Part shown: in pieces, positions 32,320 through 41,962 of the stretch | Position numbering within the stretch: position 1 is the stretch's first letter | Layout of the letters: every line of letters starts with the position of its first letter | From: Candidatus Bathyarchaeota archaeon | GTDB lineage: Archaea > Thermoproteota > Bathyarchaeia > Bathyarchaeales > Bathycorpusculaceae | NCBI GenBank assembly: GCA_963775685.1 | Contig: CAVZJV010000014.1 | Coordinates: forward strand, 1,024,001 to 1,088,000 | Length of the DNA stretch: 64,000 nucleotides | Direction of reading: 5' to 3' | Position numbers and translations under genes: made by a program | Notes under the pieces: generated by a model | The model's input: the letters and a program-made list of their open reading frames with translations, nothing else | What the model was told of the DNA's origin: nothing | Databases searched by the model: none

Positions 32320-32850
32320 TTATATTTTGACATGATTTTTCTCTATTTCGATGATTAATCGAGCAAGTAGAGTTGGTTCTAGGCGAAAGCCTTTAGTTAC
32401 CATGGTTAGCACCGTTTCTTTGGCTTGCGTTTCACTGATAAGGCCTTTTCTTAGGGCTGATATGATCACATAGATTGTTCCCTTTACTTTTAGCCCCCAA
32501 GCCTCTGCGAATGCGCGTCCAGCTGATTCGTCCATCAGTAGCAATAATTTCATTTCGTGCGCCAAGACTATTGCTTGAGCTTCTCCTTGGTGGATTTCAT
32601 TGGCGTTCTCAGAGATCTTTTGGAGTATACTTTGGTCTTTGGAGGTTAGTTTGGAGGGCTTTATCCAGCCTTCATTTATGCATTCTTTTATGGTCTGGGC
32701 GTCGGTGAATCCGCCTTGTAATCCTTTTTCTACGGCTTCTGTATACACTTCTTGAGGTATAATTACTTCCGCAAAGAGATCTTTTAGGAGGGTTATTTTA
32801 CCCACTTTTGCAAGCCATATGAGGGGGCTGGTGTCTGAGATTATGGGCAA
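32320..32850 (-). CDS. DUF3368 PIN-like toxin
   Basis: ISDTSPLI, PQEVYTE, GEAQAIVLA, LLMDE, GT. Confidence 0.85.
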   Translation of the reverse strand: MPIISDTSPLIWLAKVGKITLLKDLFAEVIIPQEVYTEAVEKGLQGGFTDAQTIKECINEGWIKPSKLTSKDQSILQKISENANEIHQGEAQAIVLAHEMKLLLLMDESAGRAFAEAWGLKVKGTIYVIISALRKGLISETQAKETVLTMVTKGFRLEPTLLARLIIEIEKNHVKI

Positions 32851-33639: not shown

Positions 33640-35142
33640 TTATGGAGTTCCATATACTGAGCGATCTGATCTTTTGACAGAAGAATTTTCTGATTTTGCA
33701 TCTGAATAGTTTATGTATACTGTTTTTAGCTCGGTAAATTCACTTGTGCCTTCGGGTCCGCTTTCCCGGTTATATCCCGAAGATTTAACTCCTCCAAAGG
33801 GCAGATGCACCTCACTTCCAACGGTTGGATGGTTAACGTAAGTCTGCCCAGATTGCAATTTCTTAATCGCAGTAAAAGCACTTGAAATATTACTAGTGTA
33901 AATCGCAGAGCTCAGACCATAATCGACAGAATTTGCAATTTCTATGGCGTCGTCCAAGTTTTTCGCTGAGATAAATGATACAACGGGTCCAAAAATCTCT
34001 TCTTGACAAATTCTCATTTGTGGTGTGCAGTTTGTGAACAGTGTAGGTTCAAAAAACCAACCTTTAAGCCCGCATGGAACTTTTCCTCCAATAAGTAGTT
34101 TTGCACCTTCATCTAGACCTATTTGACAGTATTGTTTTGTTTTCTCTTGCGCTTTTTTGTTAACTAAAGGACCAATATCTGTTTCTTTTTCCAGCCCATT
34201 TCCTATTTTAAGCCTCTTAATTTGCTCCATCACCATTTTTTCTAGTTTTCCCTTAATTTTGTGATGGACAATTACTCTTGAAGAAGCAGTGCATCTTTGT
34301 CCAGTCGTTGAATATCCACCCCAGATAACGGCATCGACGGCTAGATTGAGGTCTGCATCATCCATGACAATTAGAGGGTTTTTGCCGCCCAGCTCTAAAC
34401 TAACCCGTTTGACACCTGCTTCATGCATGATTTTGGCACCAGTGTCTTTATGCCCGCAAAAAGAGACCATTCGAACCCTCTTGTCCGTAATAAAAGTGTT
34501 CCCAACGACATCCCCCGGTCCCGTAACAAGATTAATAACACCTCTTGGAATTCCGGCTTTCTCAAGAATTTTAATTAACTCATATGCACATGAGGGGGCT
34601 TCCGAAGATGGTTTAAAGACAACTGTATTTCCGCAAACTAGGGAATAGAATATTTTGCGAGCCGGAATCATTATTGGAAAGTTCCAGGGCGTAATTAGAG
34701 CTACGACACCTATGGGTAGTCTTAAAGTGAAGGCAAATTTGTCAGGTTTTTCAGAAGTTGTTGTGTGGCCGAGGAGTCTACAGCCTTCCCCTGCCGCATA
34801 ATAGGCAACGTCGATGGCTTGTTGAATGTCTGCTCTTGAATCTGTGAGGATTTTTCCCATCTCACGAGTCATCGTTTGGGATAGCTCTTCTTTTTGTGAC
34901 TGTAGAAGCTCCCCTGCTTTGATAAGGTAACGTGCTCTTTCTGGTGGAGGTGTTGCTGCCCAAGATTCAAAGGCGTCGTCTGCCGCATCGATAGCACTCT
35001 TTGCGTCCAAGACAGCACCTCTTTGGAAAGGTCCCAAAACTTCGTGTGGATCAGCAGGGTTAACTCTGGTATATGTTTCGCCAGATTTTGAGTCTTCCCA
35101 TCTGCCATCGATAAAAAATCTGTATTTCAAAGAGCTGCCCAA
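33640..35142 (-). CDS. NAD(P)-dependent aldehyde dehydrogenase
   Basis: ITPWNFP, FKPS, LELGGKNP, GQRCTA, EEIFGPV, PFGGVK. Confidence 0.95.
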   Translation of the reverse strand: MGSSLKYRFFIDGRWEDSKSGETYTRVNPADPHEVLGPFQRGAVLDAKSAIDAADDAFESWAATPPPERARYLIKAGELLQSQKEELSQTMTREMGKILTDSRADIQQAIDVAYYAAGEGCRLLGHTTTSEKPDKFAFTLRLPIGVVALITPWNFPIMIPARKIFYSLVCGNTVVFKPSSEAPSCAYELIKILEKAGIPRGVINLVTGPGDVVGNTFITDKRVRMVSFCGHKDTGAKIMHEAGVKRVSLELGGKNPLIVMDDADLNLAVDAVIWGGYSTTGQRCTASSRVIVHHKIKGKLEKMVMEQIKRLKIGNGLEKETDIGPLVNKKAQEKTKQYCQIGLDEGAKLLIGGKVPCGLKGWFFEPTLFTNCTPQMRICQEEIFGPVVSFISAKNLDDAIEIANSVDYGLSSAIYTSNISSAFTAIKKLQSGQTYVNHPTVGSEVHLPFGGVKSSGYNRESGPEGTSEFTELKTVYINYSDAKSENSSVKRSDRSVYGTP

Positions 35143-35319: not shown

Positions 35320-35976
35320 TTACTCGAAGAGTTCGCCATAAACGCTTTTTAGCTTCTTGTATGTTTGGGCGCATTCAATGGAATCGAAAATGTATTTTTT
35401 GCCGTTAAGTGTTTCGACGTGTGGTTCTCCCATTATTGATTTTGAGCAGGTATAGCATTTTAGTTCAAAATTGTTACTTGGATTTATCTTCTCAACGTTT
35501 GGTTTGCTTTCGTTTATTGCAGTAGTTGATGGCTTTGTGGTTTGTTTTGGTTCTATTTTCTTAAGCAAGATCCTGTGGGCTAATCGTAGCAGTTCTTCTT
35601 TATTTTCGAAAGATACTTGCTGCTGCTTTCCTAAGTCAATTTTTTCTGTCCCTAAATCCACTATTATTTTTCTTCCTAAGTCACGTTGCCTAAAATATAT
35701 GAATTGTTTGCCTGCATGTCTGGCTAAACTTAGTTCTTTTCTAATCTCACCTGACAAATCGAACCCTGGTGTAATTAAAAGAATGAATACTTCGCTTTCC
35801 TGAATTGCCCTGTCCCTGACGTTTTCCCATTCTTCTTTGAAGCCTATTTTTTGCGGTATATCGTCGGTGTCAAAGAAGGCATGTAAACCCATTTCTTCTA
35901 ATCCATTTTTTAGATGTTTAGCAAAATCCAAACCGGAACTTTTTTTGTGGCAGATGAAGACGTCAAAAGGTTTCAA
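35320..35976 (-). CDS. TIR-domain protein with C-terminal TRASH/YHS-like metal-binding domain
   Basis: FDVFICH, AFFD, AIQESEVFILLITP, EIRKELSLA; C-terminal CYTC..YIFDSIECAQTY. Confidence 0.8.
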   Translation of the reverse strand: MKPFDVFICHKKSSGLDFAKHLKNGLEEMGLHAFFDTDDIPQKIGFKEEWENVRDRAIQESEVFILLITPGFDLSGEIRKELSLARHAGKQFIYFRQRDLGRKIIVDLGTEKIDLGKQQQVSFENKEELLRLAHRILLKKIEPKQTTKPSTTAINESKPNVEKINPSNNFELKCYTCSKSIMGEPHVETLNGKKYIFDSIECAQTYKKLKSVYGELFE

Positions 35977-36044: not shown

Positions 36045-36893
36045 TTATTTTTGGCTTAAGGCTTCGATGTTTTCGGCGACTGTATTTAGGTGGGTTGCGA
36101 AAGGATGCTGGGGCTGTTTGATTGAAAAGAGAAATTCGTGTCGGTTGAATTGGATATCACAGTAGCATGGAATCGATCCGATAACTTGGGCTCCGACTAC
36201 TCTTTCAAGTTCGGATATCCAAGTTTTCTCGTCTGAAAGTGATTTTTCAAAGTATGAAGCGCCGGGAACCTTATTTAGAATGATATAGTATTTAGAGCCG
36301 AATCTTGTCAGGGAATCATAGATGTCGTTTATCATTTTTCTGGTCCCCTCAATATCCATGTCGCTGTCTTTTAGCAGCAAATACATAAAATCAGCAGTTG
36401 CCAACGTGTTTATAGACCAATACCTAACGCCAGGGCTTGTATCCAAAAATAAAAAATCTAATTGATGTTTCTCGAATAGTTCTTTTTTGGCCGCTAAAAA
36501 TCTTCTCAAAGCGGCAAGTTGCCATTTGCTGTCATGTCTAAGTTCGATTTCGTTAATATCTTCTTTTCTGGTGCTGGAAAATCCGACGAGAAATTTGCCC
36601 TTTACGCCCAGCTCTTCGGTTAAGTCGAATAGGATATCGTCGATTTCAGCTTGACCGGCGAGAAGATCGTTTAGATAAGAACTGGGTTTTTTTCTGAAGT
36701 AAGTAGAAAGAGATGCTGCGAATAAATCAAAATCTATCAAACCAACATTGTATCCCTTTGAGGCAAAGTTTGCAGCTACGTTCGTTATCAATGTTGTTTT
36801 TCCAGTTCCGCCTTTATATGAGTGAAAAGCAATAGTTTTTTTGCAAGGCAATTTTGTCCCTGATATTGCTACTCGGGTTGTACCTAATAACAT
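36045..36893 (-). CDS. MinD/ParA-family ATPase
   Basis: IAFHSYKGGTGKTT deviant Walker A, LIDFD, LDTSPG, ILNK. Confidence 0.9.
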   Translation of the reverse strand: MLLGTTRVAISGTKLPCKKTIAFHSYKGGTGKTTLITNVAANFASKGYNVGLIDFDLFAASLSTYFRKKPSSYLNDLLAGQAEIDDILFDLTEELGVKGKFLVGFSSTRKEDINEIELRHDSKWQLAALRRFLAAKKELFEKHQLDFLFLDTSPGVRYWSINTLATADFMYLLLKDSDMDIEGTRKMINDIYDSLTRFGSKYYIILNKVPGASYFEKSLSDEKTWISELERVVGAQVIGSIPCYCDIQFNRHEFLFSIKQPQHPFATHLNTVAENIEALSQK

Positions 36894-36967: not shown

Positions 36968-38230
36968 CTAGGTGGTCTGTTCTTTTGATTCTTTGATTAG
37001 TTTGCCGACTTTGTTAAGGTGTTCTTTTATTTTTCTCGCATTAATTTTGCTTGAAGGTAGAGTTTCATTTGCGCGAAGTACCGGAATAATTGATAGGAAA
37101 ATAATTGCGCTTAGTATGGGTGATAGCAGCCCCGTTGAAATTCCTTGTATTTCTAGAAAATTTAGTATTGAGCTTGAACTCGTGAATATTGTCAAAGGAA
37201 CGATGGTTCCAAGGGCGTAGAATTTTTCTTTAGAAAGCGTAGATGAAACATCACCTGGAACAGTTAAATAAATAGCAAAAAGGAATCCCCAAGCGATTCC
37301 GTAGACGGAGTAATAAATCAGTATGGTTTGGGGTATTTGCGCAAAGCCAAGTAAAGCAAAGCTGATTCCTATCAAAACAAGTGCGATCACGATTGGTTGT
37401 TTGCGGCCAAATCGGTCTGCAAGTAATCCTGCGATTACGCCTGAAAACGCCGTGAAAACGTAACCTATCTCAACTCCAAGGTTTCGAGCTGTTTCAATAT
37501 CTGGACTTTTTGATAGACTTGCGCTTGACCAATCCAAAAGGCCAGCTGCTAGGTTAAACAATATCCATGGAAAGAGGTACAAGGCGAAATTGTTGTTCTT
37601 TATGACTGATCTCCAAGAATCTATTTTTGGGAGTTTTCTTTCACATTTGTCAAAGATCAATGGAATGAATCCTGAACATCTTAAGAGCACACAAAATGCT
37701 ACAATTCCGATGATCCCGGTACCTAAAAGGGGAATTATTGCAATACCCATGAAAGTCAAGATGAAAGTTATTAGGATGATCAATCCTGAGACGCGTCCCC
37801 TTTCTTCGCTCTCGGTAGAGTCGGCGAGGAAAGCTGCGATGCTGGGAAAACCAAATCCAACTGAAAATCCTAAGAGGCCGCTCAGTATCAAGGAGAATAT
37901 AACTCCCTGAAAGACCAGAATTGATAACGAAGCAGAAACCCCCATAATTGTCCATAGACTAAGTAGATTCCTGCGGCCCATCTTTTTGCTTACCGAGCTT
38001 CCTATTAAAGCCGAAAAAGCACCAAGTCCATAGAATAGCATTAGGTCAACATCAGCCCAAAAGCTACTTACCGCAAGACTATCAAATATTTGAAAAAAAT
38101 AAATATTAATAAGAAAAAACCATGCCAGAGAACTGGAAATAAGCAATGTTATTAAAATGAACTTTTTTAATGTGATTTTTAAGTCATCAGTGAAAAGAGA
38201 GCTGAATCTATCACTCATTATCGAGCCCAA
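36968..38230 (-). CDS. MFS transporter
   Basis: About 12 TM helices, GSSVSKKMGRR and GLLADRFGRK motif A, EERGRVSG. Confidence 0.85.
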   Translation of the reverse strand: MGSIMSDRFSSLFTDDLKITLKKFILITLLISSSLAWFFLINIYFFQIFDSLAVSSFWADVDLMLFYGLGAFSALIGSSVSKKMGRRNLLSLWTIMGVSASLSILVFQGVIFSLILSGLLGFSVGFGFPSIAAFLADSTESEERGRVSGLIILITFILTFMGIAIIPLLGTGIIGIVAFCVLLRCSGFIPLIFDKCERKLPKIDSWRSVIKNNNFALYLFPWILFNLAAGLLDWSSASLSKSPDIETARNLGVEIGYVFTAFSGVIAGLLADRFGRKQPIVIALVLIGISFALLGFAQIPQTILIYYSVYGIAWGFLFAIYLTVPGDVSSTLSKEKFYALGTIVPLTIFTSSSSILNFLEIQGISTGLLSPILSAIIFLSIIPVLRANETLPSSKINARKIKEHLNKVGKLIKESKEQTT

Positions 38231-38291
38231 TAAGTTTTAAATGCAATCAGATGATATTATATTTTTGCCTATTGAGGAGGTGGAAATTTTT

Positions 38292-38558
38292 ATGGGAGAA
38301 CATGTAAAAAATGACGAAGAAGAACAAAAGCGTCTTCGGATGGAATATCTGGAGATAGCTTCTGTCGTGAATACCATTTTAGAGAGAAGATATTTCCCTG
38401 CTGTTATTGAAGCACTTAAAAATAAAAGCAATGAAAAATTTGAAAAAGTCTGCAACGACGCTCAGATACCCCCTCTTGCAAGACCCTTACTTTGGAAAAC
38501 ACTAAATGATGTCTATAAAGCAAGGAAAAATAATAACCCTTGGATGACTGGAGCCTAA
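38292..38558 (+). CDS. 88-aa ComX-like candidate precursor peptide ending NNNPWMTGA
   Basis: GGAGGTG SD at 38276-38282 before ATG 38292, TTTTAAAT TATA-like box near 38236; ORF ends 1 nt from the convergent prenyl synthetase stop. Confidence 0.6.
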   Translation: MGEHVKNDEEEQKRLRMEYLEIASVVNTILERRYFPAVIEALKNKSNEKFEKVCNDAQIPPLARPLLWKTLNDVYKARKNNNPWMTGA

Positions 38559-38559
38559 A

Positions 38560-39592
38560 TTAGAAACGTAATGCATTGATTTCATCGTGGAATTTTTGGT
38601 TCAGACTTAAAAGCACATGCTTTGAAAAACTATGTCTAAGCACTTTCATGCAATTGGCCGTTGCATCCATATTTTTATTAAAAATATTATCCATATAGTT
38701 GTAGGCGTCGCTCTCAAAGTATATTTCCAAAATATTTCTAATTGTTGAGGGTGGGTAGTCGTTGGTCTTTAGAATTTCCTTAATTTTTAATCGTCTATTC
38801 TCTGAAGATTTAGCCGCAAAGAGTAAAGGCAAAGGAACACTTTCGTATTTTAGCCGATGAACTAAACTTCCTTCTATGTTTAGAGAGTCTTTCACTTCAT
38901 CCACTATCCTTGATGCGAAACCTATTCTTCGGCCAAACTCTGCAAGGGCTTGTACTTCCTCGTCCGATCCGTCACCGAGAATTGCTCCGATTCTTGTGCA
39001 AGCCTCAGTTTCAGCCATGGCTTTCCACAGAATTCCTATGTGATCTTGTAATTCAATGTTCAGTTTTTTCCGGCTGGAGTTTTCTATAAATTCAGCCTCG
39101 CACATTTCAGTGCATAGATCTCCGTAGATTTTTGTTATCTTCGCTATCTTTGCAGGATTCTTGCTACTTTCAATCATCTGGCTAATTTTGGACCAGCCTT
39201 TGATTATCAAAAGGTCTCCTACTAAGAGCGACTTGTTGAGTCCGTATTTTCCTAAAACAGTCATATTGAGATGCTTGTTTGCGGATTTGTCGATAATGTC
39301 GTCGTGAATTGAAATGCCTGTGGAAGCTAGGCGTGAACATTAGTCCCGCGTTGTCTGCGTCTTTACTGTTGCCTCCAACAGCCTCGCAGGCAAGTGAAGT
39401 CAAGGCTGGCCTGAATGAGTCTTTTCGTTTTTCTTTTATTGCTTGAAGAATCTCCAATAATTTTGAGTTGTGTATTCCTTTGATTATGTCTTGTTGAAAT
39501 TTTTTGTGTATTCTACTGCCTCTTTCTTCGATTATAGAATCTAACTCGCTGAGACTCAGAAAGGTTTTTTCAGTCATTTGTCGATTACTCAT
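38560..39592 (-). CDS. Atypical polyprenyl synthetase-fold (ComQ-like) enzyme; apparent +1 frameshift near 39330
   Basis: FRPAL..ACEAVGG, then IHDDIIDKS (FARM) in the shifted frame, LLVGD, EFGRRIG, DEVKD (degenerate SARM). Confidence 0.8.
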
Positions 39593-39770: not shown

Positions 39771-40919
39771 TTGAAGATGAGCATTATAACTTCAGAAATA
39801 ACCGAGAGAATGACTTCTTCTGAATTGATTGATAAACTGAACCGTTTCATTCCGGATTTGAATCAGGTGGAAGCGTACTTAAAAGGAGATCCCGAGGAAT
39901 TAATTTCCAGTTTTTTTCCTCTTAAAAAGCATGGGTCGAAAATTAAACCCGCTGATTCAGTGATCGATAGCAAGAAGAAACAAAAGAAACTACTTTTGGA
40001 GGAGGGTCTTCGAGCGCTTCAAAAGATTCGGTTGAATAAAGACGTAAAGCTTGATCGGAAAGAAAGATTTGCATTGTGCTCAATTGTAGTAAACATCGGG
40101 CGACCTGCTTTACTAATTCAAAACGACCATTTCCCTCAAAAGAGTAAAGATGGTAAAAGCAGTGGGCTTCCGCCTAATTGGTGGATACTTGATGAATATC
40201 GAGGCGAAATAGAAAAGACCTGCAAAAGTGTTGGTCGAATAGAGCATTCTGACCCATATAGTGCAAAGGAACTTGAGGATCCTGATGCAGACGATGGGAC
40301 AGGTTTTCTTATTGCAGAGGATATTGTTATTACAAATAAGCATGTCATAGATGCTTTTGCTTTTCTGGGAGATAATAAGAAATGGAAAATAAGGGATTCC
40401 TATAATCCAAGAATAGATTTCGCTGAGGAATATGACTCAAAAGTTGAATGCGAATTTGCTGTCAAGAGTGTAATCGGGGTGCATGAAACCTTAGAAATTG
40501 CTCTTGTTAGAATAGAGACTAGGTCGTGCCAAGGTACAAGCTTACCTGAGCCTCTTGTTCTTGATTCTGAGTTGCCAGAGCCGACTGAAAATAGAAATGT
40601 CTACTTAGTAGGTTACCCATTTCAAGGTTACCCCGAGGACAATCCTAGAGATCTTGAGCTCATATTCAACGACATTTTGGGTTACAAACGTTTGCAACCT
40701 GGTGTGGTGAGAGGAAAAGAAGTGAAAAGTCGGTCGCTCTACCACGATTGCACAGCTATTGGGGGCAATTCGGGTTCATGTGTTGTTGATCTCGAAAGGA
40801 ACAAGGTTATTGGGCTTCATTATGGTGGCAAAATAACAAACGAATTCAATGAGGCAGTCAGTTTGTCGTTGCTGAAAAATGATTCCTTATTTTCGAAGGT
40901 TGGAATAAAATTTAGTTAA
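39771..40919 (+). CDS. Trypsin-like serine protease
   Basis: GRPALLI, SVGRIE, GTGFLI, TNKH, VGYP, KRLQPG, HDC..GGNSGS, IGLHYGG. Confidence 0.9.
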   Translation: MKMSIITSEITERMTSSELIDKLNRFIPDLNQVEAYLKGDPEELISSFFPLKKHGSKIKPADSVIDSKKKQKKLLLEEGLRALQKIRLNKDVKLDRKERFALCSIVVNIGRPALLIQNDHFPQKSKDGKSSGLPPNWWILDEYRGEIEKTCKSVGRIEHSDPYSAKELEDPDADDGTGFLIAEDIVITNKHVIDAFAFLGDNKKWKIRDSYNPRIDFAEEYDSKVECEFAVKSVIGVHETLEIALVRIETRSCQGTSLPEPLVLDSELPEPTENRNVYLVGYPFQGYPEDNPRDLELIFNDILGYKRLQPGVVRGKEVKSRSLYHDCTAIGGNSGSCVVDLERNKVIGLHYGGKITNEFNEAVSLSLLKNDSLFSKVGIKFS

Positions 40920-40933
40920 AGATTTGGTTTACT

Positions 40934-41962
40934 TTGGAGACTTGTGAAGATGTGGCAATCGTAGGAGGGGGGCCGGCAGGAGCCTTCTGTGCGTTTGAGC
41001 TTGCCAAAAAGGGGATCTATGCCTCTTTTTTTGATCATTCCCATCCTAGAGAAAAATCCTGTGGGGGCGGAATTTCGCCTTATGCTATCAAAAAATTTCC
41101 TTTCTTAGAAAGGTTCCGTTCACAAACAGTCAGCCCAGGCCTTCTTAAAATGATTTCCTGCACCGATAAGCAAGTGGCTGTGGTTAGATATGAAGGATTT
41201 AGTTTATCTCGAAAATATTTTGATGAACAAATTATTGAAATGGCATTGCAGAAGGGCGCAAGAATAATTAAAGAAAAAGTTTTGGGAATTAAGAGAAAGC
41301 AGAGTCTTTGGGAGATAAAAACGGACAAACAGTTTTATTTAGCCCGAAATGTTGTTGGAGCAGATGGAATAAATAGTTTGGTCCGTCGACAGACCACAGG
41401 ACCTATTCCGAGGGAAAACCTTGGATTAACATACGGATATATGGTAACTGGACTTGAAGACGAACCTATAACAGTAAAATTTGTTGCTGAAATTCCCGGT
41501 TATATCTGGATTTTTCCTCGGCGAACCAACACATGTATAGGTATAGGCAGCGAAGCAAAATATGGCAACACACTAAAACAAATCCTAGACGCATTTATTC
41601 GTTCTTACAGTCCGCAGGTGAAGGTAACATCAAAATTTTCAGCTATGCTTCCTTGGGCAACAAATCCTGATTTCTTTTCGTTTCCTTGTTCGATGGAAAA
41701 TGGTGTTTTAATCGGTGATGCTGCAGGGCACGCTGATCCGGTGACTGGTGAAGGTATTTTGTATGCATTATGGTCGGGCAAACTTGCCGCAAAGGCTATA
41801 GCAAAAGATGACTTGAGATTGTATGATAAACTTTGGATGAAAGAGTATGGAAACTATCTCATTGATCGGTGCCAGAAGAAAAACAATTGTTACAATCCTA
41901 TGTTGATAGAATTTTATGTTGCTACGCTTTCTCTAAAGAAGAAACGTGGATCTTTCGCCTAA
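40934..41962 (+). CDS. Geranylgeranyl reductase-family FAD oxidoreductase
   Basis: VGGGPAG, CGGGI, GADG, GYIWIFP, IGDAAG..PVTGEGI. Confidence 0.9.
   Translation: METCEDVAIVGGGPAGAFCAFELAKKGIYASFFDHSHPREKSCGGGISPYAIKKFPFLERFRSQTVSPGLLKMISCTDKQVAVVRYEGFSLSRKYFDEQIIEMALQKGARIIKEKVLGIKRKQSLWEIKTDKQFYLARNVVGADGINSLVRRQTTGPIPRENLGLTYGYMVTGLEDEPITVKFVAEIPGYIWIFPRRTNTCIGIGSEAKYGNTLKQILDAFIRSYSPQVKVTSKFSAMLPWATNPDFFSFPCSMENGVLIGDAAGHADPVTGEGILYALWSGKLAAKAIAKDDLRLYDKLWMKEYGNYLIDRCQKKNNCYNPMLIEFYVATLSLKKKRGSFA

Follow-up and report, generated by a model that had tools for sequence, protein, structure and literature searches.

What does an enzyme of the polyprenyl-synthetase fold do when its gene ends, tail to tail, a single base away from a short open reading frame (ORF) that carries a tryptophan among its last few residues? 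The question is raised by a stretch of 64,000 nucleotides (nt) from Candidatus Bathyarchaeota archaeon (GCA_963775685.1, contig CAVZJV010000014.1, positions 1,024,001-1,088,000), called the window from here on. The initial annotation of the window proposed an archaeal counterpart of the Bacillus ComQ/ComX system, making a Trp-prenylated peptide for quorum sensing. Part of this proposal has survived. Judging from sequence and from analogy with bacterial systems, the enzyme probably prenylates the C-terminal Trp of a ribosomal peptide, in which case the locus is a peptide-lipidation cluster of some Bathyarchaeia, resembling those for ribosomally synthesised and post-translationally modified peptides. 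The best reading is an archaeal analogue of bacterial PalQ/PalX and ComQ/ComX that belongs to neither family. The distinct synthase-like enzyme and its pairing with a Trp-bearing ORF stand; the kinship with ComQ and ComX and the link to quorum sensing are not supported, and the prenylation itself we infer.

The elements of the pair are the following.

39332 to 39592, minus strand: N-terminal piece of the enzyme, codons 1-87, MSNRQ...KDSFRPALTSLACEAVGG...AGLMFT, with its ATG at 39592
39330/39331, minus strand: frameshift caused by a single surplus C (ACG-C-CTA), which separates the Thr codon of ...GLMFT from the Leu codon of LASTGISIHDD
38560 to 39330, minus strand: C-terminal piece of the enzyme, LASTGISIHDDIIDKSANKH...RIVDEVKD...ESVPLPLLFAAKSS..., matching PF00348, with its stop codon at 38560-38562
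38292 to 38558, plus strand: small protein of 88 amino acids (aa), a four-helix domain with a floppy tail NNNPWMTGA, of a previously unnamed family
38541 to 38543, plus strand: codon of Trp84, the proposed prenyl acceptor, fifth from the C-terminal end and aligned with the terminal Trp of the family
38276 to 38282, plus strand: Shine-Dalgarno-like GGAGGTG, 9 nt (38283-38291) before the ATG at 38292, read from the sequence
38235 to 38266, upstream of the small ORF: candidate TATA-like A/T-rich stretch, picked out by eye only

The small ORF may be read as 105 aa from 38241 or as 88 aa from the ATG at 38292, with the stop at 38556-38558; the later start, giving MGE..., is common to the window protein and its closest relative, at locus L053. 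The single base between this stop and that of the convergent enzyme gene is 38559. This arrangement, the Shine-Dalgarno sequence, the Trp fifth from the end of the peptide and the +1 frameshift near 39330 had all been described in the initial annotation and were borne out, and the motifs KDSFRP, IHDDIIDKSANKH, RIVDEVKD and YFPAVIEALKNK, as well as the ending NNNPWMTGA, are all present in the window.

The evidence that carries the argument is the recurrence of this gene pair. Loci encoding relatives of the enzyme were collected, 29 of them in species-representative genomes and 80 in metagenomes, nearly all labelled Bathyarchaeota or Bathyarchaeia. From these 109 loci and the window, 14 were excluded for lack of the enzyme C-terminus or of 330 nt of downstream DNA, leaving 96. 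A convergent ORF of at least 45 aa, with its stop within a few bases of the enzyme stop, is found in 95 of the 96. Trp is the very last residue of this ORF at 74 loci and stands among the last five residues, without being last, at a further 13 that include the window, so that 87 of 96 loci have a terminal or near-terminal Trp; short neighbours of this kind were what the initial annotation had suggested looking for. The nearest relatives of the window protein share its near-terminal position (...NPWLC at L053 and ...LPWLV at L093). At eight loci the convergent ORF has neither form of Trp, and several of these reflect a wrong ORF or read-through: a second ORF at L027 ends in GTGW, and those of L025, L059 and L060 read ...ADLW followed by 17 more residues. 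When only distinct tails are counted (n = 87), 67 end in Trp, 13 have it in the last five residues and seven lack it. By comparison, a terminal Trp is found in only 8 of 830 other ORFs of 60-130 aa at these loci and in 2 of 120 plus-strand ORFs read on the opposite strand of the same gap. The pairing of the enzyme with a Trp-ending ORF is far beyond chance.

The small ORF is under purifying selection. Nine pairs have five or more synonymous differences (six of them independent after removal of duplicates), and their ratio of non-synonymous to synonymous substitution rates (dN/dS) ranges over 0.09-0.43, from which it follows that the ORF is a real coding gene; the ratio is unstable in three pairs with one or two synonymous changes, at 0.58 (twice) and 1.33. 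An artefact of overlap with the enzyme gene was considered and rejected. The gaps between the two stops are mostly +1 to +31 nt, and in most loci the Trp codon lies in this spacer and is therefore not constrained by the coding sequence of the enzyme.

Two loci deserve separate mention. At L018 (G035:C179, 36-203, plus strand) a distant relative of the enzyme, with 26% identity and placed outside the main clade, is faced by a convergent 55-aa ORF that looks like a member of the small-protein family (...ACEKADIP...KWPMEI); the pairing may therefore predate the main clade. The small ORF of L106 (1248-1517, minus strand) ends in a repeat, ...AWGGGWGGGWGGGWG, that offers several candidate acceptor Trp in a Gly-rich context.

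What kind of protein is the small partner? A word-indexed search of 5.8 billion proteins with the 105-aa ORF returned only the query itself, an apparent orphan status that synteny and a profile search overturned. A profile built from 82 members recovered 296 proteins at E<=1e-3 among 1.84 billion cluster representatives. Among the best 148 short matches, 125 end in Trp (68 in GW and 16 in CW) and another 18 have it within the last five residues, giving 143 of 148; tails among these 18, such as ...APWMTAF and ...APWLTGIG, resemble the ...NPWMTGA of the window. These matches are not a fully independent set, as they share their origin with the loci and the profile itself holds a Trp column. W84 is the sole invariant column of the family alignment (A5). 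The members follow a pattern R..A..RA....LF....YF....A......F...C..AG........LW..L and then a tail of about 7-40 residues, highly variable in length and sequence apart from its Trp. A typical member has some 75-100 aa, and the subfamily of the window is marked by a tail of PW plus two to four residues.

An AlphaFold2 (AF2) model of the 88-aa window protein, made with 82 aligned relatives, has four helices over residues 5-79 with a mean predicted local distance difference test (pLDDT) score of 79.6, whereas the last nine residues, W84 included, are unstructured. No consistent match to Pfam or NCBIfam was found at E<=0.1 among the 82 members, nor any NHLP or Nif11 model in the same search. For this reason the protein is taken to be neither a ComX nor an NHLP/Nif11 leader, and the likeness to ComX suggested in the initial annotation has been given up. 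A Foldseek search of the model against the PDB gave no match at E<=0.001, and in the ESM Atlas the peptide was poorly recognised and fell only into clusters without a name. The gene is present once in the genome. The family profile also matches 16 stretches of a protein of 3875 aa (P0122; E 1e-37) in which Pfam finds only scattered weak helical-repeat matches; this is probably an artefact of repetitive helices.

The enzyme belongs to the synthase fold but has an altered active site. Its C-terminal piece scores 57.4 bits against PF00348 (cut-off 27) and is one of four such genes in the genome, beside two canonical synthases (209 and 188 bits) and one divergent paralogue (80.6 bits). The AF2 model of an intact relative, from locus L028, has the fold of a trans-isoprenyl diphosphate synthase at a pLDDT of 95.5. 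Geranylgeranyl diphosphate (GGPP) and hexaprenyl synthases are its top Foldseek matches in the PDB (template modelling (TM) score 0.84 for the GGPP synthase 1wy0), and the Trp farnesyltransferase Ord1 follows at rank 23, with TM 0.77-0.85, below the canonical synthases. Among the NCBIfam synthase models none comes near its cut-off, the best being IdsA (116 bits against 468).

Aligned with the two canonical paralogues of the same genome, the enzyme keeps DDxxD, D[DE]xxD and the GD of region III. GK(R) has become KD, RRG has become KH, FQ has become xR and GKxT has become ESVP, while GQ and the basic C-terminal tail are lost. The initial annotation was thus right that IHDDIID is kept, that RRG is gone and that KDSFRP stands for GKxxRP. 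We take four of the altered features (GK(R) of region I, RRG, GKxT and the basic tail) to be those that bind isopentenyl diphosphate (IPP) in farnesyl diphosphate (FPP) and GGPP synthases, so that KD, KH, ESVP and a missing tail are found where a chain-elongating enzyme would be expected to hold IPP. Asp motifs kept and presumed IPP residues lost would therefore fit the ionisation of an allylic diphosphate without elongation by IPP.

Both Asp motifs are conserved well beyond the window. In 108 sequences the H90, D91 and D95 of the first (IHDDIID in the window) are invariant and D92 nearly so. The second, which the initial annotation had called degenerate, hardly deserves the term: RIVDEVKD reads D-E-x-x-D and conforms to the family motif R-L-x-D-[DE]-x-x-D. 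D226 and D230 (numbered as in P0005, the closest full-length homologue tested) are invariant in 16 sequences, and D229 in the 108. Three residues before this motif stands an Arg, R223, also invariant in the 16; in the larger alignment the Arg (R222) is present in at least 90% of the sequences.

A quick maximum-likelihood tree of 98 rows, from which duplicates, rows containing X and the broken gene of the window were excluded, places 78 enzymes from peptide-bearing loci in one clade with an SH-aLRT (Shimodaira-Hasegawa-like approximate likelihood ratio test) support of 97. Outside it lie 19 paralogues that lack such a peptide, namely the canonical synthases and a further 17 divergent sequences, together with the distant row L051, which has no Trp ORF and groups with the paralogues. 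The tail types (GW, CW, PIW and WF) cluster on the enzyme tree as co-inherited partners would, although relatives share such labels anyway. Searches of 40 related genomes at E<=1e-30 found only paralogues of 26-38% identity, mostly without a Trp-ending neighbour, L018 being the exception. Prediction of the complex between the L028 enzyme and its 90-aa peptide, both supplied as alignments, gave ipSAE values of 0.83, 0.00 and 0.00; the median is below the mark and the result is used neither for nor against the pairing. The divergent paralogue of the window's own genome (L003, G000:C14:78754-82431) has 338 aa (79.9 bits on PF00348 at this locus), with ...PLPLIYAL... in place of GKxT. It adjoins the gene of a trypsin-family protease of 283 aa (PF00089, 44.7 bits), the same-genus loci L013 and L023 are flanked by ORFs of comparable length, and no Trp-ending small ORF was seen at the L003 locus.

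Is the enzyme gene of the window itself functional? The N-terminal piece is collinear with residues 1 to about 87 of intact homologues (67% identity to P0005), the C-terminal piece is 68% identical to the same protein, and the two together (39592-39332 and 39330-38563) align over the full length of intact homologues (332-356 aa); apart from the frameshift neither half shows damage. Owing to the one-base frameshift this copy is either inactive or mis-assembled. Programmed frameshifting was rejected as an explanation, since the listed homologues are all single open frames of about 338 aa; the site is also not known as a slippery motif. Among public reads, a soil-metagenome run contained 14% of the sampled words, and the only contig from it placed on this region spans 39338-39516, ending seven bases before the frameshift; no RNA run turned up among the read sets listed.

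Around the pair lie further genes, several of them recurrent.

36968 to 38230, minus strand: transporter of the major facilitator superfamily (MFS; PF07690, 59.9 bits), on the strand of the enzyme and divergent from the small ORF
40934 to 41962, plus strand: flavoenzyme of the geranylgeranyl reductase (GGR) family (TIGR02032, 176.2 bits against a cut-off of 158.8; PF22578 GGR_cat, 29 against 27)
36045 to 36893, minus strand: ParA/MinD-like P-loop ATPase, KGGVGR variant (PF13614, 60.8 bits; NF047398, 63.7 bits, below its cut-off of 90)
35320 to 35976, minus strand: TIR-domain protein (PF13676, 37.1 bits against 28)
39771 to 40919, plus strand: trypsin-like serine peptidase of 382 aa (PF13365, 55.6 bits), between the enzyme and the GGR-family gene
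32320 to 32850 and 33640 to 35142, minus strand: DUF3368/PIN-like small protein and aldehyde dehydrogenase (PF00171, 548.6 bits), at the flank of the cluster

Counting only loci with enough flanking DNA, the MFS gene is the tightest conserved neighbour: 55 of 60 have it just downstream of the enzyme gene, in the same orientation. The GGR-family flavoenzyme is encoded upstream at 40 of 72 loci, in divergent orientation to the enzyme gene; it carries SCGGG and YIWIFPx7GIG, which we take to be reductase motifs, and has weak matches, far below the cut-offs, to QhpG (61.6 bits), GoxB (53.5) and LodB (47.1). The KGGVGR-type ATPase is downstream in 30 of 46 loci and the TIR-domain protein in 12 of 21, with the latter upstream in some others. 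All four conserved neighbours are intact in the window. A PADLOC scan of the ATPase, TIR protein, MFS transporter and peptidase gave weak matches only and no recognised defence system. Within the flanks contained in the examined loci no receptor kinase was found among the conserved neighbours, which leaves the quorum-sensing role first proposed unsupported.

The peptidase is peculiar to the window. No homologue occupies its place at any of the 109 related loci, where the gap between the enzyme and the GGR-family gene is only about 150-230 nt, and it is unrelated in sequence to the protease beside L003. Its presence may be due to chance insertion, or it may be a leader peptidase recruited locally. 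The aldehyde dehydrogenase is also found near the enzyme at one related locus (L052). Of 401 genomes sampled from the class, 9 have an enzyme match at E<=1e-55, the genome of the window included.

How might such a cluster work? The four-helix domain would be the part that is recognised, or a scaffold, and the short variable unstructured tail would present the Trp. The metal-binding Asp motifs would ionise an allylic prenyl diphosphate with no chain elongation, and the prenyl group, most plausibly C15-C20, would be transferred to the indole of the tail Trp. Where the GGR-family flavoenzyme is present it may reduce the double bonds of the prenyl chain once this is attached, and the product would then be released by proteolysis and exported by the MFS transporter. 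The transporter and the flavoenzyme fit export and isoprenoid tailoring. An MFS protein is not expected to carry a protein of 80 aa, so this scheme needs a further cleavage step.

Several points weigh against prenylation of the peptide. The transfer to Trp is itself a step that we infer, and the enzyme gene of the window is frameshifted. Both Asp motifs are intact, as in genuine synthases, and the sequence is compatible with chain elongation or with terpene-synthase chemistry. The assignment of the lost residues to IPP binding follows textbook knowledge of FPP and GGPP synthases. In the aligned sequences the near-invariant Arg before the second Asp motif occupies the position of a Gln credited with indole recognition in bacterial enzymes; that it pairs with the terminal carboxylate of the peptide is speculation. 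The four residues after the Trp in the window would block an enzyme of the PalQ type, yet the PW[ML]T.. tail recurs in relatives. The MFS transporter is an unlikely carrier for the intact protein, neither a protease nor a receptor is conserved in the cluster, and the cluster is rare and patchy.

The first alternative leads to a small molecule. In place of a lipidated peptide, the small protein might be a scaffold whose Trp is prenylated, perhaps oxidised or reduced by the flavoenzyme, and then cut off as a lipophilic metabolite (a signal, cofactor or antibiotic) for export by the MFS transporter. Cofactors and alkaloids are known to be built on the C-terminal residues of scaffold peptides, as in mycofactocin and the pearlins. 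The transporter, the most constant neighbour, is of a kind that typically carries small molecules; in most members nothing follows the acceptor residue; variation is confined to the tail, the N-terminal four-helix domain being conserved; and the flavoenzyme has its weak matches to QhpG, GoxB and LodB, which are hydroxylases or maturases of peptidyl-Trp. Against this, conserved subfamilies can be told apart by the tail sequence leading up to the Trp (GW, PCW, PIW and TFTWF), which suggests that the Trp is not all that matters. Furthermore, no peptidase is conserved, and the flavoenzyme, which is absent from 32 of 72 loci, matches the geranylgeranyl reductases (176 bits) much better than the Trp hydroxylases. 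On balance such a route is unlikely. Its fullest form, a ribosomal scaffold for a lipid-soluble isoprenoid-indole compound that is prenylated, saturated or oxidised by the GGR/QhpG-related flavoenzyme, cleaved and exported, and that would make a new archaeal class of peptide-templated signal or cofactor, is distinctly unlikely. In that version the ATPase and the TIR protein might serve as a coupled response module.

It is very unlikely that the small protein is no substrate at all and instead forms part of a heteromeric prenyl-diphosphate enzyme, as a subunit with a regulatory or structural role whose Trp docks into, or gates, the active site or the pocket that sets chain length. Small helical partners are indeed known from heteromeric trans-prenyl synthases, hexaprenyl and heptaprenyl synthases are among the best fold matches, both Asp motifs are kept in the enzyme and the small protein has a folded helical domain. 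The genes are convergent rather than co-transcribed, however, the tail is unstructured and variable in all but its Trp, and the canonical basic positions of the enzyme are lost; the small subunits of heteromeric synthases are not known to end in a conserved Trp. Weakest is the notion that the enzyme is an ordinary or slightly unusual chain-elongating or terpene-synthase-like lipid enzyme and the small protein has an unrelated role, which is highly improbable despite the above-threshold PF00348 match, the GGPP and hexaprenyl synthases as nearest solved structures and the adjoining GGR-family gene, because the genome already has two canonical synthases, the gene has lost RRG, GK, GKxT and the basic tail and occurs in so few genomes, unlike core lipid genes, and an unrelated role would leave the Trp-ending ORF at 87 of 96 loci unexplained.

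Prenylation of the C-terminal Trp thus remains the reading to be compared with what is known. To our knowledge, prenylation of peptide Trp by synthase-like enzymes has been described only in bacteria (ComQ, PalQ, ChrPC and StheQ). Full-text literature searches, the scope of which stopped short of subscription journals and supplements, found no paper linking Bathyarchaeota or other archaea to Trp prenylation. If the reading is correct, lipidation of ribosomal peptides would here be described in archaea for the first time, and its precursors would form a new family of 296 cluster representatives that is unannotated in the libraries searched. It would also show a different solution to the active site, in which Arg replaces the Trp-recognising Gln and the second Asp motif is complete, and possibly a link to the reductase chemistry typical of archaeal lipids. 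The cluster would give a testable entry into chemical communication or antagonism in the uncultured Bathyarchaeia and an additional set of C-terminal Trp prenyltransferases for peptide lipidation. In their accessible parts, the 2026 review PMC13290415 mentions archaea only for lipobox lipidation and the 2026 preprint bioRxiv 10.64898/2026.08.29.745113 does not mention them.

Four groups of known enzymes invite comparison. Canonical archaeal GGPP and short-chain synthases (PDB 1wy0, IdsA) are the best matches in both sequence and fold, with DDxxD and D[DE]xxD in common, but RRG, GK, GQ, GKxT and the basic C-terminus are lost in what is a separate, rare and patchy archaeal clade, paired with the small Trp-ending ORF. 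Ord1 (PDB 9v4g) has the same fold, scores 70.5 bits against the family profile and superposes on the L028 model, and is outranked by canonical synthases in both the profile and the fold searches. It differs in acting on free Trp through Gln216 and Asp219, the equivalent of the Gln being Arg in the archaeal enzymes.

ComQ/ComX of Bacillus and StheQ/StheX of Sphaerobacter also resemble the archaeal pair, each having an enzyme with a trans-isoprenyl diphosphate synthase (trans-IDS) fold, with the first Asp motif kept and an adjoining short ORF with a C-terminal or near-C-terminal Trp. StheQ is reported to prenylate the penultimate Trp of a 69-aa neighbour (bioRxiv 10.64898/2026.08.29.745113, as far as its accessible text goes), a position similar to that in the PW-plus-four subfamily of the window. 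According to the same text, ComQ-type enzymes have a pseudo-second motif (pseudo-SARM), ND..., in which Asn replaces the first Asp; a true D[DE]xxD is found throughout the archaeal clade, and the proposed membership of the ComQ family is not supported on this point. Measured against that family (IPR033965), the archaeal enzyme shares the DDxxD of the first motif and has neither the ND... motif, nor a peptide of the ComX family, nor ComP/ComA-like two-component genes among its conserved neighbours. The archaeal genes are also convergent, whereas those of the bacterial pairs are in tandem.

The closest likeness is to PalQ/PalX of Paenibacillus alvei. According to PMC10853753, the substrate of PalQ is an 80-aa precursor, PalX, which is prenylated on its C-terminal Trp, and extension of the C-terminus past this Trp abolishes activity. 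According to PMC13290415, a Gly before the Trp improves recognition by PalQ, the characterised trans-IDS-like transferases all target Trp, and a Gln upstream of the second Asp motif is credited with indole recognition in PalQ, in ChrPC-type enzymes and in Ord1. Both systems place an enzyme of the isoprenoid-synthase superfamily beside a precursor of about 80 aa whose N-terminal domain is folded and whose C-terminal Trp is conserved, and both enzymes keep two second-motif Asp spaced DxxxD. The Gly-Trp that favours PalQ (PMC13290415) is the commonest archaeal ending (68 of 125). The differences are considerable. PalQ/PalX is a Firmicute system, the archaeal precursor is not of the NHLP type, and in the peptide of the window the Trp is followed by its four extra residues. 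Arg takes the place of the Gln ahead of the second Asp motif in the archaeal enzymes, and the partner of PalQ/PalX is a histidine kinase, in contrast to the MFS transporter and GGR-family enzyme found here. PalQ is described as remote from the PF00348 subfamilies (PMC10853753), whereas the archaeal enzyme scores with PF00348, a comparison made by description only. A precursor with a conserved C-terminal Trp is thus common to both systems, while the NHLP leader and the Gln are features of the bacterial one. By analogy, then, the nearest described analogue is PalQ/PalX rather than ComQ/ComX, and the archaeal pair is best treated as a system that would work in the manner of PalQ/PalX but is a member of neither family, PalQ or ComQ.

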